Assembly (NCBI GenBank): GCA_963738315.1
Contig: CAVTVT010000004.1
Location: 470,123-534,122, forward strand
Direction of reading: 5' to 3'
DNA length: 64,000 bases
Origin: Vicinamibacterales bacterium
GTDB taxonomy: Bacteria > Acidobacteriota > Vicinamibacteria > Vicinamibacterales > JAMQPK01
This document shows, in pieces, positions 9,714 through 60,755 of this stretch (position 1 is its first letter; the number at the start of each line of letters is the position of its first letter). The position numbers were made by a program, and so were the translations under genes. The notes beneath the pieces are model-generated. The model was not told the origin of the DNA, did no database searches, and worked only from the letters and a program-made list of their open reading frames with translations.

Positions 9714-9715
9714 GG

Positions 9716-13925: not shown

Positions 13926-13975
13926 CGGGTCTCCAGTGTTTCCGCGCGATAAACCGCGAGGGACCCGAGTTTCTG

Positions 13976-13991
13976 TGCAATAATTCCGCCG
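13976..13991 (-). promoter_or_regulatory. Sigma54-like -24/-12 promoter for the radical SAM operon
   Basis: Minus strand CGGCGGAATTATTGCA = GG-N10-GC with TTGCA, about 50 nt upstream of the ATG at 13925. Confidence 0.55.
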
Positions 13992-14048
13992 ATGCTCGCC
14001 GCCCCGACATCGGCTGGATTCCGTGACTCACCAGCGAGGCACTTCTGG

Positions 14049-14070
14049 AAGTCTTCCCGAAGGAAGACTT
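14049..14070. promoter_or_regulatory. Perfect 9-bp inverted repeat (operator or hairpin)
   Basis: AAGTCTTCC-CGAA-GGAAGACTT in the divergent intergenic region. Confidence 0.5.
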
Positions 14071-14121
14071 ATTACCGGATGCGCTGCGAATAGGGCCTTG
14101 TAAGATTGCAGAGGAGGTCGA

Positions 14122-35629: not shown

Positions 35630-36721
35630 CTAGCCCGCCGCCGCGGCCACCGCGCGGGCGGAGGCGGCCCCCCGTCCGTGCGCCCAGGTCAGGTCGTCGT
35701 TCAACAGGCCGCGGGAGCGCAGGCCGGTGAGCACGCGAAGCCGGACGAACGGCGAGCTCCGGAAGTCGGCGTTGTCGAACCGCATGCCGGCAAGACCGCT
35801 GCGGAGCTCGTCGATCGTCTGCCGGAGCGTCATCTGCGGCAGGTGATCGGGGGCGAGCCGCCGGAACAGCGAGAAGTCGACGCGATACGACCGCTTGTCG
35901 GGCGGCGCGGCCTGATTGATCGACACCTCGGTCGACGGAATCGCGTCCGCCACCGCCTGCGCCAGGTCGCGGACCTGATAGTTCCACTCGTCGCGGCCGG
36001 TGTTGACCACCAGGTGGGGCCCCCCCGCCTCGGCCGGTCTGCCGACAGCCCACTCGATGGCGCGGGCCATGTCGCGGACGTCGATCAGCGGCCGCCACGG
36101 GCTTCCGTCGCTGAGCACGGTGATCCGCCCGGTCGTCACGGCGCAGGCGACGAAATCGTTGAGCACCAGGTCGAGCCGGAGGCGCTCGCTCATGCCGCAG
36201 GCGGTGGCGAATCGCAGGCAGGTGGTGCGGAAGTCCGCGCCGGCCAACTCGCCGAGCGCCTCCTCGAGGAGGACCTTCGATCGCGCGTACGCCGTCAGCG
36301 GGTTCACCGCCGACGCCTCGGTGCGCGCGCCGTCCTCGGCCGCTCCGTACACGCTGCAGCTCGACGCGAAGACGAACGACCGCACGCCGGCCGCCTTGGC
36401 GCGCCGCGCCACCTCGACGCCCGCGTGGTAGTTGACGTCGAGCGTCACCGCCTCGTATTCGTTGCCCATCGGGTCGTTGGAGATGGCCGCCAGATGGACG
36501 ACGGCATCCGCTCCCCGGAACAGGTCCGCCGGCGCGCGGCGCAGGTCGACGAAGTGCTGAACGTCGAGACACGACTCCGGCAGCGACGCCGCGTTCGTGA
36601 GGCAGTGCGCGAAGAAGCCGGTGTCCACGCCCGCCAGCGTCGCGTCGGGAAAGCGCGCGCGCAGCCGCCGCGTGACCGAGGGGCCGACGTATCCCAGATT
36701 CCCCGTGATCAGAATCTTCAT
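35630..36721 (-). CDS. Extended SDR NAD-dependent sugar epimerase/dehydratase
   Basis: [37 protein letters not shown]. Confidence 0.87.
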
Positions 36722-36725
36722 GGCG

Positions 36726-37505
36726 CTACCAGATCTTCCAGGGCGCGTTGCCGGAGGTCCACAGCTCCTCGAGATAGACCTTGTCGCGCAGCGTGTCCAT
36801 CGGCTGCCAGAAGCCGGTGTGCTTGTACGCGGCGAGCTGGCCGTCGCGCGACAGGCTCTCGAGCGGCTCCTGCTCCCACACGGTCGAGTCGCCGTCGATG
36901 TAGTCGATGACGCTCGGGCTCGAGCACGAAGAAGCCGCCGTTGATCCAGGCGCCGTCGCCGCCGGGCTTCTCGCGGAACCCGTCGACGTGGGTCTGGCCG
37001 CTCGCCAGGGTCAGCGCGCCGAAGCGTCCGGGCGGCTGGATGGCCGTCAGCGTCGCCAGCGCGCCCTGCTCGCGATGGAACGCGATGAGGCTGCGGATGT
37101 CCACGTTGCTGACGCCGTCGCCGTAGGTCAGGCAGAACGTGCTCGTCGCCCAGATACGGCCGGACGCGCCTGAGGCGTCCGCCCGTCATGGTGTCCTCGC
37201 CGGTGTCGACCAGGGTCACGTCTCCAGGGCTCGACGCCGTTGCGCAGAATTTCCATGCGGTTGGCCTTGCAGGTCGAAGCGGCAGTCGGACCTGATACAG
37301 GAAGTAGTTCGCGAAGTACTCCTTGATCATGTAGCCCTTGTAGCCGCAGCAGACGATGAAGTCGGTCAGCCCGTAGGCGCCGATAGATCTTCATGATGTG
37401 CCACAGGATCGGCCGGCCGCCGATCTCGACCATCGGCTTGGGCTTGACCTGCGTCTCTTCGCTCAGGCGCGACCCGAAGCCGCCGGCCAGGATGACGACT
37501 TTCAT
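36726..37505 (-). CDS. rfbF: Glucose-1-phosphate cytidylyltransferase (several frameshifts)
   Basis: [43 protein letters not shown]-terminal APWKIW. Confidence 0.88.
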
Positions 37506-37536
37506 GTCAGAGACCTCGCTGCGATGTGCACCGGCA

Positions 37537-37562
37537 GACAGAGCTTCGCCCTCTCACTTACA
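37537..37562 (-). promoter_or_regulatory. Conserved leader element, copy 1
   Basis: TGTAAGTGAGAGGGCGAAGCTCTGTC; 23/26 identical to 47703-47728. Confidence 0.6.
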
Positions 37563-37610
37563 TCAGTCCGGATCATTCTGGCGGGAACCGGATAGGACGG
37601 CCGTTCCTAC

Positions 37611-37626
37611 AGCAAAGAGCCGTCCG
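37611..37626 (-). promoter_or_regulatory. Sigma54-like -24/-12 promoter upstream of rfbF
   Basis: Minus strand CGGACGGCTCTTTGCT = GG-N10-GC with TTGCT. Confidence 0.5.
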
Positions 37627-37760
37627 ACGCACCGAAGGAAGGCGTTCGGATATAACCCCTTTCACCGTCATTACTTACGCGAAATCAGAACCGGCGGGTC
37701 AACCAGGACCGCCGGATTGTCCATGGCAAGCAGACTATTTGTCTGCCGAACAGAAGACTT

Positions 37761-39032
<1,272 letters not shown>

Positions 39033-39037
39033 CGGTC

Positions 39038-39911
39038 TCACACGACGTCCGCGAACGTCCGCTCCATGCGGCGGAAGTAGCAGGAGCCCGCCGACGAGCA
39101 GCGCGACCACCGCGGCGACGATCGACCGCGACGAGCTCGGAGGCCGCGGGCGGGCCGTGCCCAGCAGCGCCCAGCGGAAGCCCTCGATCACCGCCGGCCA
39201 TCGGGTTGAGCCCGTAGAGCGAGCGCCAGCGCTCCGGCACGAACGCTCGCGGGATAGGCGACCGGCGTGGCGAACATCCAGAACTGGATGCAGGAACGGG
39301 ATCGACGTACCGCACGTCGCGGTACTGACCGTTCAGCGCCGAGAGCCAGAGCGCCGACGGCGAGCGCGGTCGCGAGCGCCAGCAGGACGAACAGCGGGAG
39401 CGCGAGCGATCGCCGCGGTCGGCGCGATGCCGTAGTAGCCAGCATCAGCACGACCAGCAGCGGGAACGCGAGGCCGAAGATCGACGAGGCCGGCACGACC
39501 AGCGCGCCAGCGGCATCACGAGCCGCGGGAAGTAGACCTTCGTGATCAGCGTTGAGTTGCCGACGAGGCTGTGACGCGACTGCGTCGAGTGGCGTGCGCG
39601 AAGAGCGTCCACGGCACGAGCGCCGCGAACGCGAAGACCGGGTACGGCACGCCGTCGGAGGGAATCTTCGCCATGCGGCCGAAGACGACGCGTGAACACC
39701 ACCATCGTCAGCGAGCGGCTGGAGCACCGCCCAGGCCGCCCCGAGCGCCGTCTGCTTGTAGCGCACCTTGATGTCGCGCCAGCACGAGGAAGTAGAGCAG
39801 CTCCCGATAGCGCCAGACCGACGGCAGGTCCAGGTCGAACAGGCCCTGCGGCGGCGCGATGAGCACCGTGTCTTCAGCGGCGCCGGGAGGGGCATACCCG
39901 TCCGACAGCAC
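39038..39911 (-). CDS. wzm: Polysaccharide ABC exporter permease (many frameshifts)
   Basis: WRYRELLYFL, RDIKVRYKQTALG, LITKVYFPR, WMFATPVAYP, LNPMAG, EGFRWALLG. Confidence 0.85.
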
Positions 39912-39945
39912 CGCGACCGATGAGTTTTGATCGATCCGTTCTCCC

Positions 39946-42013
39946 TCAGCCGACCTGTTCGGCGGCCGAGCGAAGCGCCGCCGCGTCCTTCCGCCGCTCC
40001 GGCCTCTGAACCCCGCCCTCGACGCGGGGGGATCCGTCGCGCCCGGCGTGCCGCTGCTGATAGCCGATGTTCAGTCCGCGGAGCGTGGCGCGGAGCGCCT
40101 TCGCGTCGCCGAACCGCGCGGCGTCTTCCAGGTCGCGCACGGCGATGTCCAGGAGCGACCGATCCTGCTGGAGCGCCTCCACGACGAAGATTCTTCGAAT
40201 ACTCGGTGCTCCGCGCGCCCGACTCGCCGGCAATCAGCAACTCCTCGTTGAGCTTCTCGCCGGGCCGCAGCCCCGTGAACTCGATCTTCACGTCCTTGTC
40301 GGGCACGAGCCCCGACAGCTCGATGAGGTTGCGCGCGAGATCGACGATCTTCACCGGATCGCCCATGTCCAGCAGGAAGATCTCCCCCTGCTTGCCGAGC
40401 GAACCGGCCTGGATGACGAGCTGCACCGCCTCGGGAATCGTCATGAAGTAGCGGCGCACGTCCGGGTGCGTCACCGTGATGTTCCTGCCGCTCCTGATCT
40501 GCCGCTGGAAAGCGGCACGACGCTGGCCCGGCTGCCGAGCACGTTGCCGAACCGCACGCAGCAGAACCGCGTGGCGGTCGCGCGCGATCCGCGGTCCTGC
40601 ACGATCAGCTCCGCGACGCGCTTCGAGGCGCCCATCGTGCTGATCGGGTTCACCGCCTTGTCGGTGGAGATGAAGACGAAGTTCCCGACGCCGAATCGCG
40701 TCCGAGACGTCCACCAGATGGCGGGTGCCCATCACGTTGTTGAGGATCGCCTGCGCCGGGTGGTGCTCCATCAGCGGCACGTGCTTGTAGGCCGCCGCAT
40801 GGAACACGACTTCGGGCCGGTGCAGCTCGAAGGTGCGCTCGATGACGTCCAGATCGCGGATGTCCGCCACGACCTCGCTGACCTCCGGGAAGTCCTCCTT
40901 GATCTCGCAGGCGGTCTCGTAGAGGTTGTTCTCGTCCTTGTCGAGCAGCACCAGGCGCGACGGCTTGAACTCCCGCAGCTGCCGCACCAGCTCCGAGCCG
41001 ATCGACCCGCCCGCCCCCGTGACCAGAATCCGCCGGCCGGCGTACGACCTGGCGAGCTCCTCCAGATCGCGCGGGTAGGTCACGCTGTCCCGTCCGAGCA
41101 GCGCCTCCATGTTGACCGAGGTGAGCTGCGTGAGGCTGGCCTTGCCCGACATGATCTCGCCCAGCGTCGGCACCGACGAGGTCTTGACCGGCAGCTGGGC
41201 GCACCGGGCCGACAGGCGCTGCAGCGTCGGCTTCGACGCGCTCGGCATGCACAGCACCACCTCGTCCACCAGGTATTCCGCGACCACCGCCTCCAGGTCT
41301 TCGGTCGTGCCGAGCACGCGCCAGCCGCCGATCGTCCGCCGCTGGATCTCGATATCGTCGTCGAGGAAGCCGACGACGTCGAAATGGTCGCGGAGCTCGC
41401 GGAGCAGATGGAGGCCCGCTTCTCCCGCGCCGATCAACAGCAGCCGCTTCCTGGTCCTGGGCCCGCGCGCCCCCTTCTGCGCGCGCGCGACCGCCTTCTC
41501 GTAGAGGATGCGCCGGGTGAGCCGCGCCTCCACCAGCCCGGTGTAGGCGAGGAGCGGATGAATGGCGAGCACGCCGAAGGGCACCGGCGTATCCGCGAAG
41601 ACGCCCGAATCGAGCACGCGCCACACGAAACAGACAATGAAGGCGACCGACACGGAGGCCGCCATCGCGGCGGCGTCGTTCAACCCGAAGAACCGCCAGA
41701 TCCGCTTGTAGACGCCGGACGCGATGTTCGCGCCCACGTACAACGACACCACGAAGGGGAGCGCCAGGCGGAGCTGATGACCGTAGGGAGCGGGCGGAAA
41801 TCCGTCGAACCGGATCATGTAGGCCAGTCCCAGCGCGGCCGCCACGATCGCGGCGTCGATCGTCAGCTGGCTCAGCCGGCTGGTCACGACCCTGCCCGCC
41901 TGCCGCTGCAGGCGCCCCAGCAGGAGCGCAACGGCTGGCGTGCGCCGACCGATCAACAGCTCCCGCCAGGAGCTCATCGACGGTTGGACGGATTTGGCGA
42001 GATCGCGGCCCAT
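39946..42013 (-). CDS. Membrane-bound UDP-GlcNAc 4,6-dehydratase (CapD/PglF/WbpM family; frameshifts near 40690, 40510, 40195)
   Basis: N-terminal TMs, [51 protein letters not shown]. Confidence 0.9.
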
Positions 42014-42131
42014 GTTTTCCCCCACAGTGAAGTGGATGCTTCGAGATGTCTGGTGATCGACGAGAGTGCTGGCGGGTGCACGATGGTGCACCGCCCCCGA
42101 TCTGCGGCCGGCCGGACGAACGGAGGCGCGT

Positions 42132-45331: not shown

Positions 45332-45939
45332 GAACGTCTGAGCTCTGGATACCGCGGTTTGCTGAACAGCGCGAAGATGGTCTGCGCCAGAATCATGAGG
45401 TCGCTCGACAGGGTCCGCCGCGACAGGTAATCCAGCTCGATCTGCAGCTTGCGCGGCAGGATCTCGCGCCGGTAGGTCGCCTCCCAGTCGGGTCCGGTGA
45501 GCATCTGCTCTTCGTGCCGGTGCAGGAGCGTGGCCAGGCTGGTGATGCCCGGCCTCACTCGGAGCACCTGCCGCTCGTCCGCTGAGTAGTACTTTACATA
45601 TTCCGGATCCTCGGGTCGAGGTCCGACGAGGCTCATCTCGCCCTTGAGCGTGTTCACCAGCTGGGGCAGCTCGTCCAGCTTCGACCGTCGCAGGAGCCGG
45701 CCGACGCGCGTGATCCGCGCATCTCCGCTGGCCGTGATCCGCGGCCCCCGCGCCGCCGCATCGGCCACCATCGTCCGGAATTTGTACAACTCGAACAGCC
45801 GGCCGTTCCGGCCGACGCGCCGCGCCCGGTAGAGGACCGGCCCCCGCGAGCCCGCCTTCACGGCGAGGGCAATCAGGAGCATGAGCGGGCTCAGCACGGC
45901 CAGCCCGACGACCGACACGCTAACGTCCAGCCAGCGCAT
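45319..45939 (-). CDS. Initiating undecaprenyl-phosphate phosphoglycosyl transferase (small PglC/WcaJ-type)
   Basis: KFRTM, LRRSKLDELPQL, GEMSLVGPRPE, RPGITS. Confidence 0.92.
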   Translation of the reverse strand: MRWLDVSVSVVGLAVLSPLMLLIALAVKAGSRGPVLYRARRVGRNGRLFELYKFRTMVADAAARGPRITASGDARITRVGRLLRRSKLDELPQLVNTLKGEMSLVGPRPEDPEYVKYYSADERQVLRVRPGITSLATLLHRHEEQMLTGPDWEATYRREILPRKLQIELDYLSRRTLSSDLMILAQTIFALFSKPRYPELRRSCRT

Positions 45940-47241
45940 AGGAAGCCGAGGGACGCGTGCGCGCGATGTCCAGGACGGCGTCGATCACCTGTTCGACGTC
46001 CTCGTCGGTCATGCGGCTGTAAATCGGCAGCGAGATCTCGCGCCGGTATTCGCGGTAGGCGACCGGGAAGTCGTCGGGCCGGTAGCCGTACACGGTCTCG
46101 TAGTACGGGTGCACGTGGAGCGGGATGAAGTGGACGCTCGAGCTGATGTTCCGATCCTTGAGCTCCTGGATGAACTGCTCGCGGCTGATGCCGAGCGCCT
46201 CCTCGCGCACGCGGATCATGTAGAGGTGCCAGGCATGCCCCACGCCGTCGCGCTCGACGGGCGTCTCGAGCCCGGGCTCGCCGGTGAAGGCGGCGGTGTA
46301 GCGGGCCGCGATCTCGGCGCGGCGCCGGCGCATCCGGTCGAGCTTCCTGAGCTGCGCCAGGCCGAGCGCGGCCAGCAAGATCCGGCATGTTGTACTTGTA
46401 GCCGGGCGCCATGATCTCGTAGTACCAGCTGCCTTCGGCGGTGTACCGCTTCCAGGCGTCCTTGCTGATGCCGTGCAGGCTCATGATGCGGAACCGGTCC
46501 GCCTGCTCCTCGCTGTCGGTCGGTGATCATCCCGCCTTCGCCGGTGGCCAGCGTCTTGGTGGCGTAGAACGAGAAGCACGCCGCCCAGGGCACGCCGCCG
46601 CCAATCGGGGCGCCCACGGGACGTCCGTTGAACGACGCCGAGCAGGCGTGGGCCGCATCCTCGACCACCGCGAGCCCGTGCGCGCCGGCCGCCGACACGA
46701 TGGCGTCCATGTCGCAGGGATGCCCCGCCATGTGCACCGGGATGATCGCCTTGCCGGCGCCGCGATACACGTTCCTGCTCCGCCGCCCCTGCCGAGGCCG
46801 CGCCGACCGCTCGAGCGCCCGCCCGACCGCCAGCGTGCGCGGCTTCCGCCCCTCGTGGAGGCACCGGTTGAGATCCGCGATGGTGTCGGTGAGCGCGGCG
46901 GGATCGATGTTGAACGTGTCCGCCTGCACGTCGACGAAGATCGGCACGGCGTCGAAGTAGCGGATCACTTCCGCGGTGGCGGCGAACGTGTAAGGCGTCG
47001 TGAACACGAAATCGCCGGGCCGCACGCCGATCGCCTCGAGCGCCAGGTGCATCGCCGCCGTGCAGGAGCTCACCGCGACCGCGTATTTCGCCCCGACGAG
47101 ATCGGCGAACGCCTGCTCGAACTGTCTCGTCTTCGGACCGGTCGTGATCCAGCCGGAGTCGAGCACCTCCCGGATTTCGTTGAGCTCGTCGCCGCCGAGA
47201 TCCGGCAGCGCGAACGGCAGCAGCGTGGTCCGCCTGGTCAC
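45920..47241 (-). CDS. DegT/DnrJ/EryC1/StrS sugar aminotransferase (frameshifts near 46515 and 46380)
   Basis: SGWITTGPK, SSCTAAMHL, EDAAHA, SFYATKTLATGEGG, GYKYNM, ISLPIY. Confidence 0.92.
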
Positions 47242-47690
47242 CGGGCGCCTCCCTCGCGGGGATCCTGGCGCGGCGCCGGCGAGGCGCCCGACTCTTTCTG
47301 CGACCTCTCCGCTTCGGCGATCTGCTCGAGCAACTGCTGGAACCCGCCTTCTCCCTCGGGTCGAATGAACGTGGAGAACGCTTCAGCGCCGGTCCGCACG
47401 GGTGCCTCGAAATGGATCTGGGAGAAGCGGCTGCGGCAGGTCCCGCACCGGTACGGCGGCAGGCCCATCCTGACGAGCAGGCTCTGCAGCCACGCCCTCG
47501 AGCTCAAACGGTGCGCCTGCGCGCCGCAGTGCGGACACCTGATCCACTCCCCCTTCACGACGGTCAGCGGCCTGTCCACTGCGGCGGCGGGCTGGCCGAA
47601 ATGGGGAGCCCGCAGCGGCGGCTGGGCGGTGGTCGGGGTGGCCGTGCCGAACGCCTTCGCGCGTTCGAGGGCCTGATGAATTCTTGTCAT
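47238..47690 (-). CDS. Small Zn-ribbon protein, first gene of the polysaccharide operon
   Basis: CPHCG...PYRCGTC; stop overlaps the DegT start. Confidence 0.6.
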   Translation of the reverse strand: MTRIHQALERAKAFGTATPTTAQPPLRAPHFGQPAAAVDRPLTVVKGEWIRCPHCGAQAHRLSSRAWLQSLLVRMGLPPYRCGTCRSRFSQIHFEAPVRTGAEAFSTFIRPEGEGGFQQLLEQIAEAERSQKESGASPAPRQDPREGGAR

Positions 47691-49966: not shown

Positions 49967-50307
49967 GCGTCGGGGTGGATGGGCCGCCAGTCGTGGTACT
50001 GGAGGCGGCAGGCGTCGCACCGGACGAGCGGCGCGCCGGAGAGCGCGGCGAGGCTGCTGAGCGGATGCCGTGAGACCGAATCGATGTGATCGCGCTTGCG
50101 GCTCCGCTTCACGTGCACACTGCCGCACCGGACGCAGTGCGTATGCGTGGCCAGGACGAACCTGACGCCCGGGCGATCGAACAGGCGGCGGGTCTTCTTC
50201 GTCCGGCCGCAGCTCGAGCAGCGGAAGACGCGGCTGTACAGCAGCTTGTCGAACCAGCTCCGGCGGCGCCTCGCCATGGCGCCCCCGCAGCCCGGGCACA
50301 CGGGCAT
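49954..50307 (-). CDS. Small basic double Zn-ribbon protein
   Basis: CPGC..CSSC and CVRC..CDAC; Arg-rich. Confidence 0.6.
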   Translation of the reverse strand: MPVCPGCGGAMARRRRSWFDKLLYSRVFRCSSCGRTKKTRRLFDRPGVRFVLATHTHCVRCGSVHVKRSRKRDHIDSVSRHPLSSLAALSGAPLVRCDACRLQYHDWRPIHPDAHQN

Positions 50308-50324
50308 GGTGGAGGGGCAGGAGT

Positions 50325-50971
50325 TTACCTCGTTTTTACAGGGAAGCCAGCCCAGGCGTTGAGCACGCCGAACCACTCCTTCGAGACCGCGTTCGCGTCC
50401 TGGGTGGTCTTCCACCACCGGCCCGGCTGGAACGGGTCGCGGCGGGCGAAGCGCACCATCAGCGAGGGCGTCGCGCCGACCAGCACGCCCCAGAGCACCT
50501 TCACGCGGCGCGTGTGATATTTCGAGGTCACCACGATCGCGCGCTCGCCGCCGGCGCGCCGCAGCTCGGCGGCAATCGCCTGCACCTCTTCCGCGGTGTT
50601 CTTCGTGTAGCCGGGCAGCACCCGGATCGCGCCGGCCGGCACGTCGAGCCGCTCCAGCACCCGGCGGCTGGAACTGGTACTCCGGCACCCGCGGCACGGC
50701 GAGATCCGACAGCGCCGCGTCCTCCGCGTCTGTACGCGCCCCGCGTGAGCCACACCTCGGGAGCCAGCCGCTGCCCGTAGATGGCCGCCGCCTCCATCGC
50801 GCGGAACGGCACGCCCCCGGCGAGCACGACGATCGCCCGGGCCGGCTGGAGCGTGTCGGCCACGATGAGCCATCTGGCGGCGGCGGTGAGGGCCAGCGGC
50901 GTCACGAGACAGAGGCCCAGGAGCACAACCGCGCCGGCCAGGAGCCGCCGAACGGACGCCGGGAACGTCAA
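50325..50971 (-). CDS. YdcF/DUF218 family protein (frameshifted near 50700)
   Basis: N-terminal TM, AIVVLAGG..R, NTAEE, VVTSKYHTRR, SKEW. Confidence 0.82.
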
Positions 50972-50979
50972 GGCGCCGG

Positions 50980-51150
50980 CTACTTCGCCGATGTTCGCTT
51001 GGTGTTGCCGGGGGGCGGCGGCTGGCCGTCCTTGGCTCCCTTGTTGCCGACCGCACTGGTGACATCCGCCAGGTTCCCGTAGATCCGGAACTGCGGACGG
51101 CCGTACTGCTCGCCCCGGGCGGGTGGATTACGCGATTCCTCTGCGCTCAT
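50980..51150 (-). CDS. Lasso peptide precursor (56 aa)
   Basis: AGGAGG RBS; leader YGRPQFRIYGNLADVT fits YxxPxL(F)xxxGxxxxxT; Thr at -2; core AVGNKGAKD.. has Asp at position 9; overlaps the cyclase stop. Confidence 0.88.
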   Translation of the reverse strand: MSAEESRNPPARGEQYGRPQFRIYGNLADVTSAVGNKGAKDGQPPPPGNTKRTSAK

Positions 51151-52995
51151 GTGTGTCTGCCTCCTCCTGATTGCCGCCGGCGCTCTCGAGCTGCGAGAGC
51201 CACCGGCCCAGCACGCCGAACCGGAACCTCGCGCCGGCATCGCTGGGGTTCAGCGCCGATTCTTCTGTCATCTTCTTCACGTCGCCGTACTCCGCGAGCC
51301 GTGCCACGGGCCGGAGTGCGGCCCCCTGGCGGCCCGGCTGCGCCAGCACCGGGTCCCGGCCGAGCGGTGTCTTGCGCCGCGTGCGGACGGCTTCCGGCAG
51401 TGCGCCCCTCAGCGCCTCGCGCAGCAGGTGCTTCCGGCGGCACCAGGGCAGCGCCGGCACCCGCAGCATGAACCTCAACAGCCGGATGTCGAGGTAGGGA
51501 TGGCGCACCTCGATCGGCGCGCCGGTATAGGCCGGCTCCAGCGATTCAAACAGCGACTGCCAGAGCGGCGTCAGCATCGACGCGTAGCCGCGCGGCCGCA
51601 CCGGATGCGCGGAAACGGTGTCGCGGCACCAGTCGCTCCAGCGCCGTTCGAGCTCGAGGCGCGAGACGAGCTCTGGACGAAGCCAGTCGGGAAACCTCGT
51701 CCCGTCCCCACCGGCGGCGCCGCCGCCATTGCCGAAGAGGCGCGGCACCATCCCGGCGAGCGGAAGCCGCCGGTGCGCGCGCAGGTGCCGCGCGCCGTCG
51801 GCCGCCAGGCGCCCCCATCGCTTGCCCGCGACGAGATGCCGCACGTACGGCTGCCATTCGTACAGGAGCGCGTTGTCCGGCCCTTCGCCGTAGAAGACGA
51901 CCCGCCCCTGCGCGGCGACGTCGGCGTAGAACGGCTTCGCGGCGCCCGCGTGCACGGCCGACTCGAGCGGCTCCGGCGTCGGCGCCTGCGCCTCCGCATG
52001 CGCCGACGGAGCATCGTCGGCCACCCAGGACCGGATCGGAATGCCGAGGTGCCGGGCCACCATGCCCGCATAGTGCCCTTCCGTGTCGGGCATCAGCCGG
52101 GTGTAGATCGACGTGAACGCCTTCACCGGGTGCGCGGCCGGGCCGTGCCGCAGCAGCCGGGCGGCCGTCGCGGCGAGACCCGGCGAGTCGAGGCCGCCGC
52201 TCATGAACACCGACACCCGCCCGGTGCGCAGGCGATCGGCGACGGCCGTGTCGACGAGCTCGCGGAACTCGTCCACGTAGTCGCGGCTGCGGCGGTAGAA
52301 GAGCGGCTCCTCGATCGGCAGCGTCCAGTATCGGCTGCAGGCCCACACCCTGCGAGGCCGACCACCTGAGCGCGTGCGCCGGCGGCAGCCGCTGGATGTC
52401 GGCGAACGAGGTCGTCGCGAGCTCCTGGTTGTCGCCGAACAGCAGGAAGTCGGCGATGGCGAGATCGTTCAGCCGCGACGAGACGCCGGGGTGGCGCCGC
52501 AGGCACTCGATCGAGCTCGCGACGGCGACCGCCGATCCCAGCCGCGCGTAGTAGAGCGGCTTCACCCCCATCTGGTCGCGGGCGCAGAAGAGCGTCCGCC
52601 GGCGCGCGTCCCAGACGGCGAAGGCGAAGTCTCCCAGCAGGCGGTCGACGCATCGCTCGCGCCATCGCATGTAGGCGTGCAGCAGCAGCGCGGCATCGGA
52701 CGCTCCCGTATCGGCCGAGGCGCCGGCGCTCCGAAGCGCGCGCACCAGATGGCGGCGATCGTCCACGCGCGCGTCGGCCACGATCCAGGTGCTGCCGTCG
52801 ATCGTCAGCGGCTGGCGGTCGTGGCCCGCTTCGGCGCCGGTCGCCAGGAGCGCGTGCCCGAGCGCCACGCCGTCGCCGATCCAGACCTGCTGCCGATCCG
52901 GTCCTCTCGAGGCGAGCGCGCCAGTGAGGTCCGCGGGCCAGCTCCGGATCGGCCGGCGCGCCATCGGTCTCGAGCAGCGCCAGGATGCCGCTCAT
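51128..52995 (-). CDS. Lasso peptide cyclase (C protein; frameshifts near 52940 and 52350)
   Basis: MSGI start without Ntn Cys, GDFAFAVWD, ARDQMGVKPLYY, MSGGLDS, GEGPD, EVRHPYLD. Confidence 0.88.
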
Positions 52996-53942
52996 GCCGG
53001 CGACTCCCGTGCGCAGATCGGCGACGAGCGCCTCTCTGACCTGCTCCAGCACATCGAACGTGCGCGGATAGCGAAGGCGGCGCACCGGGATCCGCCTGGC
53101 GAGCGCGCCCGCCGCGGCGAACTGGCGGCTCAGCCGCGCGGCGTCCCTCACGCGCGCGTTGAACGTGGCGCGCACGATCTCCATCACCGAGTCCGATCCC
53201 GGCACGTCTTCGATCGTCACCGTCTCATCGCCGGCATAGTCGAGCACGACGAAGCGGCGGATCGGCACCGGCGAGCGGTGCTGTTCGCCTCCCGCGAGCG
53301 GAATGACCAGCTTGTCGGTCTCCGGGTTCATCGCCGCGCCCGGGCGGTCGCCGAACCGATGGGCGCCGGCGGAGTCGGGAAAGAGCTTGATGCGCGGCGG
53401 ACCGGGATAGCCGCACGGCTCTCCCCGCACGCTCCGCACGAGCAGCAGATCGTCGCCGAGAATGGCGCTCCCCGCGCGAAGGAACGAGGCGGCCAGCGTC
53501 GACTTGCCCTGGCCGCTGTCGCCGAAGAGCGCCAGCCCCTGTCCGTCGACGACCAGGGTCGTCGCGTGCAGCGGCTCCCAGCCCTGCTTCACGAGCGCGA
53601 ACGACAGCACCGCGCCGAGCAGATAGGTCTGGAAGCACTCGACCGTCGCCCGATCGAGCAGCGCGCAGGAGATGTGCCGGCCGTCGGCCGACACGACGAA
53701 CTGGAACAGATCGGGCCAGCGCAGGAGCTCCGACCCGTCCGGATGGACGAACCGGCGATACCAGGCGCCCTCCGGTCCGCCAGGCTCGAAGCCGGCCGTC
53801 CGATCGTCCATCGAGTCCGCCGTCTCGAGCGCCAGCGTCACGTCGGCCTCGCCGTGCGGCGCCGGCGCCGGTCGAACGGCAGCGGGATCTCGCTGCGGAT
53901 CGACAGGCCGTACCCCGCGTACGTCAGTCCTGCCATGCTCAT
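52996..53942 (-). CDS. HPr-kinase-like lasso peptide kinase (frameshift near 53870; no stop before the cyclase)
   Basis: YGLSIRSEIPL start, LHATT, GDSGQGKSTLA, LGDDLL. Confidence 0.85.
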
Positions 53943-55735
53943 GCGGTTGCCAGTATCGGCGTGCGCCGCTCCGGCATCTGCTCGCCCCAGACCGCGGCGT
54001 ACGTCGCGGAGCGCTCGAGCAGCTCCTCGTGCGACCCGGAGGCGGCAATCGTGCCGTGCTCGATCAGATGGATGACATCGGCGTGCATCGCCGTCTTCAG
54101 CCTGTGGGTGATGATGATGGCCGTGCGGCCGCGGGCCACCTCGCGGAATCGCGCGAACCAGTCGAGCTCCGACCAGGGATCCAGCGCGCTCGTCGGCTCG
54201 TCGAGCACCATGATCGGCGCCGGCCGGAGGAAGGCGCGCGCCAGCGCGAGCCGCTGCCATTCGCCGGCGCTCAGCTCCATGCCGTCGCAGAACCACTTGC
54301 CGAGGAGCGTCCGGTAGCCGGCGGGCAGCGTGCGGATGAACGCCGCGGCTCCCGACAGTTCGCTGGCCCGTCGGATGTCGCCGCTCGAAGGCCGCCGCGC
54401 CAGCGCGCTGATGCTGATGTTGTTGGCGATCGACTGGCTGTAGCGGACCGGCTCCTGGAAGAGCGGCGTCACCAGCGCCCGCAGCTCCTGCAGATCGATC
54501 CTCCGCAGATCGACATCGTCTATTTCGATCGTCCCTTCCGCAGGGTCGTACAGCCGGCAGAGCAGCTTGAGCAGCGTGCTCTTGCCGCCGCCGTTCGGCC
54601 CGACCAGCGCCACCGTCCGCCCCGCCGGAATCTCGAGGTCGAAATGCTCGAGCGCCGGCCGCGTGCTGCCCGGATAGCTGAACGTGACGTCGCGGAAGCG
54701 GATGCGCCGCGCCGCCGCGGGCGTCGTGTGCACGGCGGCGGCGTTGCGAATCTCCGGCTGGAGCTCGAGGAACTCGAAGAGGTTCTCCAGGAACAGGCTG
54801 CTGGCATAGAGATGCGCCACCGCGCCGAGCAGCCCGCGCATCGTCGACAGCCCCTGGGCGAACGCCTGGTAGAAGGCGGCGAGCTGTCCGAGCGAGAAGG
54901 CGCCGCGGAGCGTGCGCAGCACCACCCATCCGAACGCGCCCGACGCGATCAGCATGCCGGAGGCGGCGGCCAGCAGCTCGGCCACGCCCCGCCGGCGGAC
55001 CAGCGCCAGCCGTTCGCACCGGAGCTGCCGGCGGATCTCCTCGTGCGCGCGCCGGAAGAGCGGCCCGAGATCGAACAGCCGCAGCTCCGAGGCGTGGGCC
55101 GCCGAGGTCAGCACGCTGTCGTAGTAGTACCCGCGACGCTCCGTGGCCGTCGTCTCGCGCCACCACGCCTGCTGGATGAGCGCGTGCTTCCCGACGACGT
55201 AGAGCACCGGCACGGCGCTGAGGAAGAGGGCGAGCGGCAGCCACCAGCCGTAGGCGACGAGCACGGCGCCCATGGCGGCCAGCGTGACGCAGCCCTGGAA
55301 GACCTCGCCCAGCGTGTCGAGCAGCTCCGAGGGGCGGTAGGTCGCTTCGTCGCGCGCGCGGTGCAGATGGTCGAAGAACGACGGCGACTCGTAGAACGCC
55401 AGATCGAGGCGTGCGGACTGCTCGTGTATCCGCGCGGTGATCCGATCCTTGAGGCGCTCGGCCTGCGCCACCCGGGCCCAGCCGAGCGCCGCCCGGGCCG
55501 CGGCCACCGCGGCCATGACGATCGCCGAGAGCGCGGCCCACAGCAGCAGCGGCTCCACGGCCGGCCAGGCGCCGTGCGCCGCGGCGGCGGCCACCACGTG
55601 ATCCACGATCTGCCTGGTGATGTAGACCGTCGCCAGCGGCGCGAGGCCGAGCACCGCCAGCAGCGCCGCCCAGATCAGCATCGACCGATCGCCCTCGGCG
55701 CGCAGCAGCCTCACGATGTTCGAGAGCGATCGCAT
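53939..55735 (-). CDS. ABC exporter, fused TMD and NBD (lasso cluster)
   Basis: TM domain, GPNGGGKST, LSAGEWQR, LDEPT, ITHR. Confidence 0.92.
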   Translation of the reverse strand: MRSLSNIVRLLRAEGDRSMLIWAALLAVLGLAPLATVYITRQIVDHVVAAAAAHGAWPAVEPLLLWAALSAIVMAAVAAARAALGWARVAQAERLKDRITARIHEQSARLDLAFYESPSFFDHLHRARDEATYRPSELLDTLGEVFQGCVTLAAMGAVLVAYGWWLPLALFLSAVPVLYVVGKHALIQQAWWRETTATERRGYYYDSVLTSAAHASELRLFDLGPLFRRAHEEIRRQLRCERLALVRRRGVAELLAAASGMLIASGAFGWVVLRTLRGAFSLGQLAAFYQAFAQGLSTMRGLLGAVAHLYASSLFLENLFEFLELQPEIRNAAAVHTTPAAARRIRFRDVTFSYPGSTRPALEHFDLEIPAGRTVALVGPNGGGKSTLLKLLCRLYDPAEGTIEIDDVDLRRIDLQELRALVTPLFQEPVRYSQSIANNISISALARRPSSGDIRRASELSGAAAFIRTLPAGYRTLLGKWFCDGMELSAGEWQRLALARAFLRPAPIMVLDEPTSALDPWSELDWFARFREVARGRTAIIITHRLKTAMHADVIHLIEHGTIAASGSHEELLERSATYAAVWGEQMPERRTPILATA

Positions 55736-55737
55736 GA

Positions 55738-56178
55738 TCAGCCCGCGAGGCTCCTGAACGGCACGAACGCCGCGTCGCGCGCCTGCAGCGACGGGTCAAG
55801 CCGGCGGCCGCCAATCCCGACCCAGGCGTGCGCCTCGAAGATGCCGCCGGGCCTGGCCGCGCCCAGTTCCACGCGGCTCTCGATCCCCTGCTGCTCGAGC
55901 AGCGCCCAGACGACCAGCGCGCGCGGCAGGCAGGCGGTGCGGCATACGTGGTGATCCGCGGCGGCGCGCACCAGGCGGCAGGTCGTATCGGCCGCGTCGT
56001 TACGGGACGTGGAACCCGGCATGGCGGGCCGCCGCGACCCCATCGCGAGCCATCTCTGCGTCCGCCGCAGCCCCAGACCGGCGACGCTGAGCCGGACGAG
56101 CGGCAGCAGGAGCCACGCGCGGACGAACATGTTGCGTTCCTCGGGGCTCAACAGGCCGAATTGCCTCAGCCGCTTCAT
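55738..56178 (-). CDS. Lasso peptide leader peptidase B2 (transglutaminase-like)
   Basis: CLPRAL (Cys) and EAHAWV (His). Confidence 0.92.
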   Translation of the reverse strand: MKRLRQFGLLSPEERNMFVRAWLLLPLVRLSVAGLGLRRTQRWLAMGSRRPAMPGSTSRNDAADTTCRLVRAAADHHVCRTACLPRALVVWALLEQQGIESRVELGAARPGGIFEAHAWVGIGGRRLDPSLQARDAAFVPFRSLAG

Positions 56179-56456
56179 CCGCGGATCTCCAGGAGCCCGT
56201 GCGCGAGCAGCGTGCCGACGAGATCGGCCAGATCCTGCCGGAGCTCCCGCTCGTCCACGTCGTACACGCCCTTCAGCGATTCGAGCGCCGCATCCACCGA
56301 GCCGGCCTTCGTCATGGCGTCCCACATGCGTCCGCCCACCCTGTCGAGGCCGAAATAGGTCTCGCTCTGGAGATTCAGCAGCACCGCTTCGCCGTCGATT
56401 TCCGAGATCATCACGTGCTCCGGCGCGCGCACGCACGAGCTGAACGAGAACGTCAC
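56175..56456 (-). CDS. Lasso peptide RiPP recognition element B1 (PqqD family)
   Basis: IDGEAVLLNL..YFGLD.VG..MW..YDVD..GLLE; GTG start overlaps the upstream stop. Confidence 0.92.
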   Translation of the reverse strand: MTFSFSSCVRAPEHVMISEIDGEAVLLNLQSETYFGLDRVGGRMWDAMTKAGSVDAALESLKGVYDVDERELRQDLADLVGTLLAHGLLEIRG

Positions 56457-57574
56457 CTCAGCACCTCCCCCTTCATCACCCGCCACGATGCGCCCGCCGC
56501 CCGCCGCAGATAGGCAGCCGCCAGTCCCGCCGCGGTGTCGACGCCGTGCGCTCTGCGCATGAAGCCGGCGTCGGGCAGCGCGTGCTCGAGGAGCAGCCGC
56601 GCCTTCGCGCGAAGGCCGGCCGACCCGCGGACGTCGAGCAGCAGGCTGCGCGCCTCGCTGCGCACGCCTCCGAGGTACTCGCGCGAGGGCTCCCGCACAT
56701 CGCCCGCGCGCGCGCCCCGTGCGTCGAGGTGCCGCAGGATCCCTCCAGGGCACCCGACGAGCGCCACCGCCGACTGGATTCCGCCGGCGCAGACGCCGAG
56801 CAGCTTCTTTTCGGCGGCGAGCGCGGCGAAGCGGATCGCCTCGGGCTCCGGCATCGCTTCCACCAGCAGCCGGATGTCGTACAGCCACATCAGGACCGGC
56901 GAGTCGTCATGGTGCGCCACCCGGTGCGCGCAGGCGACGAGCAGCGCGTGCGGCAGTGACGGCATCTTCGCGCCCGGGCCGAGCGCCGGCACCGGCAGTG
57001 CGCCGGCGGCGAGCTCGTCGAACGAGAACATCGACGCGAACAGCGGGCGGTTGCTCACGGCCCAGTGCAGATCGATGACGTGCCACGTCGATCCGATCTG
57101 CCGCTCGAAGGTGCACTGCGTGTGTACCGATCCGCCCGACAGGCTGTTGAGGCGCGTGTAGCCGAGCGCCTCGAGCAGATCGGCCGCTGTCGGAAAGCTG
57201 GATCGCCTGACGAGCAGGTCGGTGTCGTACCGCGATCGCAGCGCCGGGGCCGGGTAGAGCGTGTAGCCGAGCGCCGCACCCTTGAACACGAGCGTCTCGA
57301 CGCCTGCCTCGCGCAGGCGCTCGACGACGCGCTGGAGCTCGCGGCGGCGCACCAGCTCGATGGCCGCTTCGCGCGTGACGTGGCGCTCGAGCGCGTCGCT
57401 GATGCGCGCAGGCACATCGCCCGGCGCCCGCTCCTTGAGGACGCGCCAGACCAGCCCTTCCACCCGCTGCTCCGCGGCGGCGGCAAGCAGCCGATCCTGG
57501 ACGGCAGGGTCGTCCAGCGCGCCGCGCGGCGGCAGCTCGCCTCGCAGGATGGCGCTCGCCAGTGTGTCGCTCAT
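56453..57574 (-). CDS. Nucleotidyltransferase (NTP_transf_5-like, lasso-associated)
   Basis: FKGAAL..YP....R..DTDLLV, IDLHW, WLYDI. Confidence 0.87.
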   Translation of the reverse strand: MSDTLASAILRGELPPRGALDDPAVQDRLLAAAAEQRVEGLVWRVLKERAPGDVPARISDALERHVTREAAIELVRRRELQRVVERLREAGVETLVFKGAALGYTLYPAPALRSRYDTDLLVRRSSFPTAADLLEALGYTRLNSLSGGSVHTQCTFERQIGSTWHVIDLHWAVSNRPLFASMFSFDELAAGALPVPALGPGAKMPSLPHALLVACAHRVAHHDDSPVLMWLYDIRLLVEAMPEPEAIRFAALAAEKKLLGVCAGGIQSAVALVGCPGGILRHLDARGARAGDVREPSREYLGGVRSEARSLLLDVRGSAGLRAKARLLLEHALPDAGFMRRAHGVDTAAGLAAAYLRRAAGASWRVMKGEVLR

Positions 57575-57578
57575 GAGT

Positions 57579-59018
57579 TCAGGCGGAAAGCGCGCGATCG
57601 AGCGGCGCGGCGCCGAGCAGGCCGAGCACTGCCGGCGCGCCCACGCCGACGTCCGAGGCGACCCGTCCCGCCGCGTCGAGCAGCACCGCCGAGGGGGTGC
57701 CGGTGGCGCCGAACACCCTGGCCGCGCCGAAGCTCGGGTCGAGGACGACGCGCGAGCGGAAGCGCTGCGCGCGATTGGCGTCCGCCGCGCCCGCGGCCAC
57801 GATCACGAGCTGCGGGCCGGTCTTCGCGCGCGTGCGCTCCCACGATCGCACCTCGCCGAGCATCGCCTTGCAGAAGCCGCAGCCAGGGTTCCAGAAGAGC
57901 AGCACGCTCGGGCGGCCGCGGAGGGCGGCGATATCGAACGCCGCGCCGTCGAGATCCCGAAGATCGAGCGGCGGCGCCAGGTCGCCCTGCGCCACCGGAT
58001 CGGGCACGGTTTCGCCGAAGACGAGCGCGCGGATCTCGTCGCCTCCCGCGGCGAGCGGGGCCGCCACCAGGCCTTCCTTAATAAGGATGGCGCTCGGCGA
58101 CGCCTTGACCCGGTAGGCGTCGCCGACCTCCCGGTCCTCCTGCAGCAGCATGTCTGCCAGGCCGTGCCGGGCGGCCTTGGCGCGGTTCGCTTCCAGATCG
58201 CCGCGGCTCACGGGCACGATCACGAGCTTGCCGGCGTGCACCCGCTGCCATCGCGCCACCTCGGGGAGGAGCGCCTCGCACGCGGTGCAGCCCGGCTCGA
58301 CGAACAGCAGCATCACCGGCTTGCCGAGCGCTTTCACGGCGTCGAGCGCCACCGGGATGCCGTCCAGGCCTTCGAGCGTGAAGGGTGGCGCCTCGGTCGC
58401 CACCGGCAGGCCGGCTGCCGGCGTCTCGTCGGCCGTCGTGCCCGCCTTCGCCTCGAGCGCCTCGATGCGCAGCATCATGCGGCCGTTCTGCGCGAGCAGG
58501 CTGACGAGCATGAACGCGCCGCCTGCGGCTATCGCCGCGATCGCGAGGCCGAGGAAGAGCGCCACCTGCTGGCTGCCGTCGAGGCTGCCGATCCAGGCGG
58601 CGAGCCCCGGGCCCGTCTGACCCGGTCCGCGCGCGACGATGGCGGCGGCGATGGCGGCGAGGGCGCCGTTCCTGGCCACCGTGCTCCAGCCGACCGGCTC
58701 GGAGTGGAGCTTGCCGAAGCAGTGGCAGTCGGGCGTCCTGCCGCGCGCGAGGTTGGCGACGATGCCGGTGATGAAGACGGCGAGCATCGAGACCGCGGCG
58801 ATCGCGCCGAACCAGGCGGATGCGCTGCCGAGCAGGGCGGCGGCGGTGGCGAGCTCCGCGATCGGGAGCGCGAGTGCGAGCGGGCCCGCGACGGCGGCCG
58901 GCACGCCGAACTCGCGCATGGAGCGGCGGGAGCCGGGCCGGTCGAAGAGCTTGGCGATGCCGGCGACGGCGAAGATGGACGCGAGGAGAAGGCGTGCTGA
59001 CAGCAGAATCAGGTTCAT
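57579..59018 (-). CDS. MauE/DoxX membrane domain fused to two thioredoxin-like (TlpA/MauD-like) domains
   Basis: FAVAGIAKL, PDCHCFG, ARNG; PGCTAC and PGCGFC CxxC motifs. Confidence 0.88.
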   Translation of the reverse strand: MNLILLSARLLLASIFAVAGIAKLFDRPGSRRSMREFGVPAAVAGPLALALPIAELATAAALLGSASAWFGAIAAVSMLAVFITGIVANLARGRTPDCHCFGKLHSEPVGWSTVARNGALAAIAAAIVARGPGQTGPGLAAWIGSLDGSQQVALFLGLAIAAIAAGGAFMLVSLLAQNGRMMLRIEALEAKAGTTADETPAAGLPVATEAPPFTLEGLDGIPVALDAVKALGKPVMLLFVEPGCTACEALLPEVARWQRVHAGKLVIVPVSRGDLEANRAKAARHGLADMLLQEDREVGDAYRVKASPSAILIKEGLVAAPLAAGGDEIRALVFGETVPDPVAQGDLAPPLDLRDLDGAAFDIAALRGRPSVLLFWNPGCGFCKAMLGEVRSWERTRAKTGPQLVIVAAGAADANRAQRFRSRVVLDPSFGAARVFGATGTPSAVLLDAAGRVASDVGVGAPAVLGLLGAAPLDRALSA

Positions 59019-59102
59019 TGCTAATGCTCTCGATTGAAGATCGACCTAGTAGTGCGTGATGCTCACGCCGTCGATGAACGGACGCTGTCGAGGGAAGGCT
59101 GG

Positions 59103-60755
59103 TTATTGTCGAGCGAGCGCAGATCGCATGAGTCTCGAATCCACTCGTTCCAGACACTCGCTTGCGCCATTGCGGACTTCAACGCCACATCGTCTCCATT
59201 CCGAGTTCAGCCATCGCGGGTCCAGCGCGCTCCGGATTACACTCTTCCAGTCGATGAGCACGCCGATGTCTTCGTCGTCCACATATTGTCCAAGTCGCGT
59301 CGGAGTAGCCGCTCCAAGGACGGCCTCGTTTACCTTTCCATCTAGATTCACGACGTTCTCGTTGAAGAATCCTATGACGCCGCTTTGAAAAGCCCCGACC
59401 CTCTGGCTCGAGAAACGCTCGTGGATGACTCCGGCGCTCACCGTGTGGCTGTTGCCGATTCGCCCTGAGTGAAGGCTCAGCACTGCCCATACCGAAAATG
59501 CGAGCGGCATAGACCCGAAGGCGACAATGTGACCCGCGCGGGGCAGCCGCTTGAGCGTGGCCAGTAGAACAACTCCAATGAGTGGTGTCGCGACCGGCAA
59601 AATAGGACTCGAATAGCGCTGATAGAAGTGGGCTGCCCAGAAGAAGTACGTGTAGACGCCAGCGAGGCCGACGGCCGCGATTCCCCATGCGACCAGTGGC
59701 GTGTTCTCTCGAATCGCAGCTTGAATTGAGGCCGATTCCCGCCACGCATATCGCCCCAACACCAAGAGCGAGACTGCAGCCGCTACAACGAACACTCCAC
59801 CTGAATTTGAATATATCCACGGCGTCAGGTGGCTCAAAAGCGCCGCTGACATCGCACTGACACGACCGGCTGCGGTATGCCACCCGATCATTCCAGCTTG
59901 CGCTCGGCCGGATGACGGAACCCAGTGACCGGACTCCACCTGGTTATAGAGCAGCCAAGGGCTCAAAACTGCAGCTGCCGTTGCGCCGACCACGACGATT
60001 TCGGAAAGGGACGCCCTCCGCGTCAGTAGCGAGACGACAAAGTAGAAACCCAGAAGAACGCCAAAATCGAGACGTGCCCACGCGGTAAGGCCGGCTAACA
60101 GCCCAAACGACAGGCAATTGACCATTGTCTGCGGCCGGGACTGGTGCCGCAGAGTGAAGAGAATGCAAGCGGCGACCAGGGTCAGGTAGATACCGGTCTC
60201 CAGACCGTAGGTGAACCACCGGAAATTGGCGAAATTGAACACCGAGAGCGTAAATCCCAGAAGATAGGCACTAGCGCCGCTACCTTTCGGCGCTATGTGC
60301 TCAAGGATGCGTCCCACAAAGTGACCGTAAAGGAGGAGAATCAGCGCCCCGAAGACCAACACGCTGCGGACAAAGGCCCAGCGGTCCCCGAGATGCTGAA
60401 TGGGTTTCGCGATCAGCGCAAAGCACAACGTGCTCAGAGGTTGGACCCCCGTTGTTGGCATGTCCAGGTTGTAGACAAGCCCGTGCCCTCTGGCAATGTT
60501 CCATGCGACTGTGAGCATGTAGTAGCCGTCCTCGCCGACAGGCTTGTCGGCGAGATAAGGGAAGGCGTGCCCGTCTGCCATATCGCGTGGAAACCCTGGG
60601 TGAGAAGCAATCGCTAACGCCACAACGTATGCCAGGTAGACTCCAATGACGATTCCGAGAAACCAGCGGCCCCAAGCCGCTGTTTGCAGGCGCGTCTCTT
60701 CCGAATCGTTTCTTTCGGCTGACAGCTCGTTGCGCATGAAGTAATCCAGGTCCAT
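59103..60755 (-). CDS. Polytopic membrane protein, probable GT-C glycosyltransferase
   Basis: GEDGYY..AWNIARGHG, GLET, ARLD, NLDG; visibly lower GC than its neighbours. Confidence 0.65.
   Translation of the reverse strand: MDLDYFMRNELSAERNDSEETRLQTAAWGRWFLGIVIGVYLAYVVALAIASHPGFPRDMADGHAFPYLADKPVGEDGYYMLTVAWNIARGHGLVYNLDMPTTGVQPLSTLCFALIAKPIQHLGDRWAFVRSVLVFGALILLLYGHFVGRILEHIAPKGSGASAYLLGFTLSVFNFANFRWFTYGLETGIYLTLVAACILFTLRHQSRPQTMVNCLSFGLLAGLTAWARLDFGVLLGFYFVVSLLTRRASLSEIVVVGATAAAVLSPWLLYNQVESGHWVPSSGRAQAGMIGWHTAAGRVSAMSAALLSHLTPWIYSNSGGVFVVAAAVSLLVLGRYAWRESASIQAAIRENTPLVAWGIAAVGLAGVYTYFFWAAHFYQRYSSPILPVATPLIGVVLLATLKRLPRAGHIVAFGSMPLAFSVWAVLSLHSGRIGNSHTVSAGVIHERFSSQRVGAFQSGVIGFFNENVVNLDGKVNEAVLGAATPTRLGQYVDDEDIGVLIDWKSVIRSALDPRWLNSEWRRCGVEVRNGASECLERVDSRLMRSALARQ

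Follow-up and report, generated by a model that had tools for sequence, protein, structure and literature searches.

The 56-codon gene on the minus strand at positions 50,980 to 51,150 of the window (the whole 64,000-nucleotide stretch of Vicinamibacterales DNA that was analyzed) is, judging from its sequence and from the genes around it, a genuine lasso peptide precursor of the class II type that is tailored by a kinase and a nucleotidyltransferase. It sits last in its operon, as gene A of a seven-gene minus-strand set with the order N-B1-B2-D-K-C-A, and two of the six partner genes, the kinase gene K and the cyclase gene C, are interrupted by changes of reading frame. Our reading, which we hold with a probability of about 0.8, is that A is a class II lasso precursor at the end of this operon and that the frame changes in K and C are most likely consensus errors.

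The precursor gene and its operon

Translation of the minus strand of 50980-51150 gives a predicted leader, MSAEESRNPPARGEQYGRPQFRIYGNLADVTS, directly followed by the core, AVGNKGAKDGQPPPPGNTKRTSAK, and a stop codon, and the gene caller behind a public protein collection gave the identical 56-aa product (P0002). The gene and its parts are the following.

50980..51150, minus strand: precursor gene A, 56 codons plus TAG, read by translation
51055..51150, minus strand: leader of A, 32 aa, with Tyr(-17), Pro(-14), Phe(-12), Gly(-8), and Thr(-2), from motif scans
50983..51054, minus strand: core of A, 24 aa, with a predicted Ala1-Asp9 isopeptide ring
51010..51015, minus strand: run of six C in codons P14-P15, an indel-prone spot
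51160..51168, minus strand (read 51168-51160): ribosome-binding site (RBS) AGGAGGAGG, rated strong, 9 nt before the ATG of A

The leader fits the pattern Y..P.[LFIVM]...G.....T. exactly, and its segment YGRPQFRIYGNLADVTS matches the class II leader motif YxxPxLx3Gx5Tx with Leu replaced by Phe, a replacement also found in the nearest relative, the metagenomic P0004. Within the core, D9 is the single acidic residue, which places the ring acceptor within positions 7-9, and the predicted ring is followed by a loop with P12-P15 and by the tail NTKRTSAK. Residue counts give five basic residues (K5, K8, K19, R20, and K24), no F/W/Y/H, and Lys as the last residue, in agreement with the composition given in the original prediction (24 aa, five Lys/Arg, aromatic-free, no C-terminal Ser); its central claim of a lasso precursor with an Ala1-Asp9 ring beside a kinase likewise agrees with the leader motif, with D9, and with the cluster genes. 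When all six frames of the 64-kb window were scanned for the complete precursor pattern (leader motif, Asp or Glu as one of core residues 7-9, and a stop no more than 75 residues away), there was a single match; of 200 windows simulated with a first-order Markov model, 3 held one or more. None of the precursor family models reached its cut-off for A (lasso_cyano, 17.5 bits against 33), and a promoter and terminator scan of 50200-59400 returned no promoter-like site and three terminator-like sites against 2.0 expected, none of them usefully placed.

The run of six C raises the question of whether the reading frame of the tail is right. Taking one C from the run gives an open frame of 274 codons, and adding one gives 207 codons, so the earlier argument that either one-base shift loses the nearby stop is confirmed. 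Conservation supports the same frame better than the stop argument does: GNxKRT is kept in relatives beyond the Pro-rich loop, and the frame after the run is therefore correct.

All six partner genes of A are codirectional with it, and their ends overlap or abut: N overlaps B1, B1 and B2 abut, the D stop (TGA) overlaps the ATG of K, and the final 23 nt of C overlap the start of A.

56453..57574, minus strand: N, nucleotidyltransferase, 373 aa, intact (PF14907, E 4.7e-39)
56175..56456, minus strand: B1, RRE protein (PqqD-like), 93 aa, intact (PF05402, E 1.5e-13; alignment A5)
55738..56178, minus strand: B2, leader peptidase, transglutaminase-like, 146 aa, intact (PF13471)
53939..55735, minus strand: D, ABC exporter, 598 aa, intact (Pfam ABC_tran and ABC_membrane)
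52996..53942, minus strand: K, HPr-kinase-like, in two frames (Hpr_kinase_C, 21.9 bits, cut-off 33.3)
51128..52995, minus strand: C, asparagine-synthase-like cyclase, in three frames (Pfam GATase_7/GATase_6 at 51546-52964, Asn_synthase at 51128-52348)

Among the intact partners, N keeps the KG...DxD motif, with K98, G99, D117, and D119 invariant in alignment A7, and D is 52% identical to the D gene of the metagenome locus L087. B2 scores 65.3 bits against NF033537 (lasso_biosyn_B2), over the cut-off of 33; B1 reaches 58 bits against lasso_PqqD_Bac, under the cut-off of 80, and all the NCBIfam models specific to B1 stay under theirs. In K, the residues H92, G107, G110, G112, K113, S114, D130, and D131 are invariant (alignment A3), and HPr kinases take the first four places when the K profile is matched to the PDB (E 3e-7 to 1e-5). 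The best NCBIfam model for C is the lasso cyclase NF033535, which matches with profile positions 25-213 in one frame and with 217-398 in another, both pieces scoring under the curated cut-offs.

Two flanking genes were considered as further cluster members and rejected, the MauE/DoxX-thioredoxin gene upstream (3 weak matches in 37 related loci that carry K, hereafter K loci) and the DUF218 gene downstream (matched in 0 of the 37). The upstream gene, at 57579-59018 on the minus strand, encodes a membrane protein with MauE/DoxX and two thioredoxin-like domains and ends 4 nt before N; precursor A, for its part, has no Cys. The rest of the window (1-50000) is mostly a large region for polysaccharide biosynthesis and export, with a Wza-like Poly_export protein, a Wzz/tyrosine-kinase-like protein, a CpsB phosphatase, a sugar transferase, several glycosyltransferases, a carbamoyltransferase, dTDP-sugar enzymes, and an intact asparagine synthase at 1247-3094.

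Frame changes in the kinase and cyclase genes

Neither gene is whole in the assembly: the frame is broken at one place in K and at two in C, interruptions that the original prediction overlooked. The C proteins of relatives align in frame -2 over 52928-52353 and continue in frame -3 over 52339-51365, which places the two changes near 52931-52932 and between 52331 and 52353. Codons 1-21 of C (MSGILALLETDGAPADPELAR) lie in the third frame and are colinear with the N-terminus of a relative once a single base near 52931-52932 is discounted. In K, codons 1-34 (MSMAGLTYAGYGLSIRSEIPLPF...) run into a stop at 53838, and the body follows in another frame from about 53841-53871, with no stop up to the ATG of C. 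A strict N-terminal kinase motif lends the 5' frameshift in K only moderate support, because it matched just 7 of the 37 relatives' K open reading frames (ORFs). Read through in one frame each, K would have about 315 aa and C about 620 aa.

Are these frame changes errors of the assembly or signs of decay? The genome consists of 4 contigs with 89% completeness, and its secA gene (contig C3, 1352775-1355213), the only copy found, is broken into 7 pieces that alternate between two frames, with one TGA inside, while a uvrA paralogue (contig C3, 551614-554360) is spread over three frames. The genes rpoB, rpoC, dnaE, carB, and the main uvrA copy each occupy a single frame, meaning that assembly errors are not everywhere. 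A survey of split genes in the window, by Pfam scan of 72 segments selected by GC3, found at least four further genes split across frames: Transketolase_N, DUF4910, Polysacc_synt_2 (3 pieces), and DegT (3 pieces). Genes that cross frames lie at window positions 16370-17183, 20221-21094, 36700-42025, 45932-47259, and 50325-51065, and the set also includes DUF2172 (with DUF4910), RmlA-like and ABC ATPase fragments, a CapD-like Polysacc_synt_2, and DUF218. The frameshifts in K and C are probably consensus errors of this assembly, an explanation favored by the fact that the indispensable secA, in its only copy found, carries clustered indels.

The alternative is a decaying relic, in which the precursor is open, the kinase and the cyclase carry real frameshifts, and the organism makes no lasso peptide. 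Three frame changes within the 2.9 kb of K plus C, with the K body reading into C without a stop, would suit such decay; five long conserved genes are unbroken elsewhere, so the assembly is not uniformly poor, and a second kinase-linked lasso cluster in the genome could make this one dispensable. The DUF218 gene downstream is split too. Against these points, the at least six frame switches of secA mark clustered indels as a trait of the assembly, and N, B1, B2, D, and A are intact and have kept their motifs. Moreover, each frame change in K and C fits a single base and costs no residues relative to homologues, which is how consensus errors, or very recent mutations, would look. On this evidence we regard a relic as unlikely.

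A kinase-linked precursor family with a conserved tail threonine

The original prediction called the peptide new, and the searches bear this out, in that no close relative was found. A HMMER pass over 1.84 billion representatives gave 7 matches at E up to 0.001, of which four are precursor sized: P0004 (...MVGNKGAKDGYVPPKGNVKRTLP), P0006 (...AVGNMGNLDGGPVPAGNLKRTAP), P0007, and P0008. All four are singletons from metagenome assemblies, and they are 51, 40, 37, and 40% identical to A (alignment A1), or 55/49/41/49% over the matched stretches. They have xVGNxGxxDG and GNxKRT in common, with conservation extending over residues 5-53. Two other matches, P0003 (934 aa) and P0005 (756 aa), both long and repetitive, were discarded as spurious. 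A further match, the metagenomic protein P0009 (133 aa), holds two tandem units that resemble lasso precursors (KKPYHTPKLTVYGNLPTIT...) in a single frame. A word-index protein search with A matched the query only, a search of 60 related genomes with the precursor found no relative (best E 0.0275, noise), and the pattern from alignment A2 matched 38 stretches on genome contigs, 0 of which were confirmed as relatives. A metagenome scan added four more loci with five precursors, including AVGNMGNVDGGGAPNTKTAA in a full B1-B2-C-A-A-K-D-N cluster. A literature search on such peptides (Acidobacteriota kinase, Vicinamibacter, PF14907 lasso), with supplementary precursor lists outside its scope, found none.

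Alignment of 15 precursors of this subfamily (alignment A6) leaves six invariant columns: Y16, P19, G25, and T31 in the leader, and D9 (D41) and T21 (T53) in the core. In alignment A2, K51, R52, T53, and core P14 are invariant, and the relatives end variously in LP, AP, H, SV, and others. Two members, P0007 and the metagenomic L089:501-668, have Asp at core position 10 if they are cut at the usual site, so that either the ring would have ten residues or the cleavage site would be shifted; the ring and cleavage rule of the subfamily would then not be perfectly uniform.

How unusual is the core of A among precursors that are linked to a kinase? Homologues of the K body occur in 61 of 401 genomes of the phylum, its own genome counted, and the 18 named MAG contigs that carry K homologues belong to Acidobacteriota (including Vicinamibacterales), Gemmatimonadota, Methylomirabilota/Rokuibacteriota, Nitrospirota, and Actinomycetota. 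Across the 37 K loci, many of them cut by contig ends, C was found in 35, B1 in 26, B2 in 24, N in 22, and D in 9. By a strict scan for the leader motif, 30 of the 37 other K loci, and the window as well, have precursors. Once a spurious row from the window, PRWARP..., which arose from a relaxed first-residue pattern, was dropped, the scan gave 32 precursors. The locus L080, whose length and precursor are identical to those of L049, was left out. Aromatic residues are absent from 28 of the 32 cores, and one of the 32 has a C-terminal Ser. Cationic, aromatic-free cores without C-terminal Ser are the family norm in the kinase-linked clusters of these soil lineages. The features that had been taken to set this core apart are real, and it is their distinctiveness that falls away. 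Similarly, the tetraproline loop is present as described, and PPPP is one version of a Pro-rich loop in which P14 is invariant (alignment A2) rather than a special feature of A.

The same genome has a second kinase-linked lasso cluster on contig C3 (locus L048, about 9300-14300), with a K that is 44% identical and the core LKGRDKSDGSGEPATRK; its cyclase frame reads into the precursor without a stop codon.

A further question is which residue the kinase would modify in a core that ends in Lys. The arrangement [KR]T followed by 0-3 residues to the end is found in 14 of the 15 subfamily precursors, against a mean of 1.3 when tails are shuffled, and 0 of 2,000 shuffles reach 14. The cores of P0004 and P0006 contain no Ser or Thr other than Thr21. 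Thr18 and Ser22 of A are not conserved across the 15 subfamily precursors. The 16 other precursors of the clade to which K belongs all have [ST][RK] in the tail, and 13 of the 16 have P-x(1,2)-[ST][RK]; 0 of 2,000 tail shuffles reach either count. The segment P15-G-N-T18-K19 of A fits both of these tail motifs, and N-T18-K-R-T21 holds both candidate acceptor motifs, the one at Thr18 and the one at Thr21. The precursors compared are kin, and all of these motif counts overstate their independence. Going by these motifs, Thr21 and Thr18 have about equal odds of being the acceptor, and Ser22 has little. The original prediction had placed the acceptor at an internal Thr18, Thr21, or Ser22, or else had the kinase act after trimming of AK: Thr21 (15 of 15) and Thr18 (by the K-clade motif) gain from the comparison, Ser22 is unconserved, and the trimming finds no support.

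The trees of K and C suggest different histories. In the K tree, a 20-row clade (support 100/99), made up mostly of ring-8 loci from several phyla, takes in the kinase of the window, and the kinases of ring-9 loci form a separate clade (99/96). In the C tree, built on the C-terminal piece only and with 11 rows, the cyclase of the window groups with ring-9 loci (100/100). Precursor A, too, has its nearest kin among ring-9 loci. Gene order differs as well, K lying upstream of C here and downstream of A in most relatives. That K on the one side and C and A on the other have different nearest kin suggests a recombined cluster. A more specific scenario, which we offer as possible but doubtful, is that the cluster is a hybrid part of a large group from soil phyla (Acidobacteriota, Gemmatimonadota, Methylomirabilota/Rokuibacteriota, Nitrospirota, and Actinomycetota, all uncultured), combining a ring-8 kinase of the P-x-T-[RK] kind with a ring-9 cyclase and precursor of the [KR]T-end kind, and that in this group the thread would be locked by a phospho(-hexosyl) group in place of bulky side chains, put by the kinase and the nucleotidyltransferase on a conserved tail Thr that adjoins a Lys/Arg pair.

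Proposed pathway and comparison with known lasso systems

A pathway can be proposed by analogy with the characterized pade, psm, and bsf systems. B1, as the RRE protein, would bind the leader through the YxxPxF...G...T motif; the affinity between PadeB1 and its leader is described as nanomolar (PMC5067487). A complex prediction for B1 and the precursor gave an ipSAE of 0.46 against 0.00 for the best control and was rated as weak support for binding. In the calibration, 58 of 80 solved complexes attained the ipSAE mark, as did 2 of 110 mismatched pairs, and the band up to 0.60 holds 7 of the 80 solved complexes together with both passing mismatches. The runs used custom alignments and had a contact agreement of at least 83% and a partner pLDDT of at least 51, and RRE-leader pairs resemble solved complexes.

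K may then phosphorylate a tail Thr of the still linear precursor, either Thr21 ([KR]T) or Thr18 (T-K), in keeping with described lasso kinases, which work on the linear precursor (PMC9266682, PMC10368454). Phosphorylation away from the C terminus has a precedent in BsfK, described as requiring BsfB1 and as acting on a nonterminal Ser, Ser3 (PMC10368454). N may put a hexose onto the phosphate, by analogy with PsmN, which is reported to be required for hexose on the phosphate (PMC6993621). B2 would cleave after Ser(-1), and C would close the ring around the tail by linking the Ala1 amino group with the Asp9 side chain. Lys19 and Arg20, perhaps with the modified Thr, would then sit at the ring, a plug role with which their conservation is compatible, and D would export the peptide, leaving four basic side chains free of compensation. 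The predicted monoisotopic masses are 2357.2564 Da for the core after loss of H2O, 2437.2227 Da with HPO3 added, and 2599.2755 Da and 2761.3284 Da with one and two hexoses in addition.

The product might instead be made without being held by side chains, so that it unthreads to a branched-cyclic peptide or relies on a phospho(-hexosyl) lock added by K and N. The core of A has no F/W/Y/H and a nine-residue ring, 28 of the 32 kinase-linked cores are equally aromatic-free, and the conserved Thr adjoins K19 and R20, the only bulky residues. A lock of this kind was suggested for pseudomycoidin in the account of Zyubko et al. (PMC6993621). On the other side, N is missing in 15 of the 37 K loci, many of which are cut by contig ends, and Arg-rich lasso peptides such as lariocidin are described as threaded (PMC11451635). 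We consider such a product quite unlikely. It is hardly credible that this ORF arose by chance in GC-rich DNA, with the real substrate elsewhere: random ORFs are long at about 70% G+C, and no curated precursor model reaches its cut-off, but the full leader motif together with a ring acceptor has a single match in the window and turned up in 3 of 200 simulated ones, A abuts the cyclase gene behind a strong RBS, its relatives are conserved over residues 5-53, and no other precursor candidate was found in the cluster.

Taken as a single gene cluster, this is one further genome-mined candidate. To our knowledge, every characterized kinase-tailored lasso peptide carries its phosphate on a C-terminal Ser, apart from one case in which ring Ser3 is the site. 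The family described here is widespread in soil and groundwater MAGs; a C-terminal Ser is very rare in it, and a tail Thr next to basic residues is retained instead. If this Thr were the acceptor, the site rules of lasso kinases would widen, and the family would provide a natural test of whether a phospho-sugar can plug a lasso that lacks aromatic residues. Of most interest are the conserved tail Thr and the mosaic ancestry of kinase and cyclase.

Lariocidin and triculamin, likened here by description, are strongly cationic like A and have a ring Asp flanked by Gly, with a Ser1-Asp8 ring against the predicted Ala1-Asp9 ring of A (PMC11451635). Their cluster is described as carrying genes for a GNAT and for a clostripain-like peptidase, with neither a kinase nor N (PMC11451635), whereas a Pfam scan of the present cluster genes found no GNAT. 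Paeninodin (pade) and the ThcoK/SyanK systems share more with the present cluster: split B1/B2, an HPr-kinase-like K that acts on the linear precursor, an Ala-Asp ring, and export by D, as far as these systems are described (PMC9266682, PMC5067487). K of the window has the His/P-loop Lys/Asp-Asp motif of such HPr-kinase-like proteins, with a Pfam score under the cut-off and a 5' frameshift. The acceptor differs, being a C-terminal Ser called "extremely conserved" in those systems (PMC9266682, PMC5067487), while A ends in ...TSAK and lacks this residue; N, present here, is absent from the pade cluster as described (PMC6993621). Pseudomycoidin (psm) from Bacillus pseudomycoides combines K with an uncharacterized nucleotidyltransferase N, as here, the two N proteins being likened by description alone (PMC6993621). 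That N is reported to be needed for one or two hexoses on the phosphate, with the bulky group suggested as a lock, and psm is unlike A in its C-terminal Ser acceptor and its Firmicute host (PMC6993621).

The closest characterized system by gene content is bsf of Bradymonas sediminis FA350, known here by description, in which all seven gene types of the present cluster recur (A, B1, B2, C, D, K, and N; PMC10368454). Its gene order and core are unrelated to those of this cluster (PMC10368454). The described target of BsfK is ring Ser3, whereas the ring of A is without Ser/Thr and has Gly at position 3, and the Bsf leader has Ile(-2) against Thr(-2) in A (PMC10368454), so A shows neither the Ser/Thr at core position 3 nor the Ile/Val at -2 that mark the Bsf type. 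The bsf precursor does resemble A in having no C-terminal Ser (PMC10368454), and the spacing of the H-G-G-G-K-S-D-D residues in K equals that of H148-G163-G166-G168-K169-S170-D186-D187 in BsfK, as taken from the published positions (PMC10368454).
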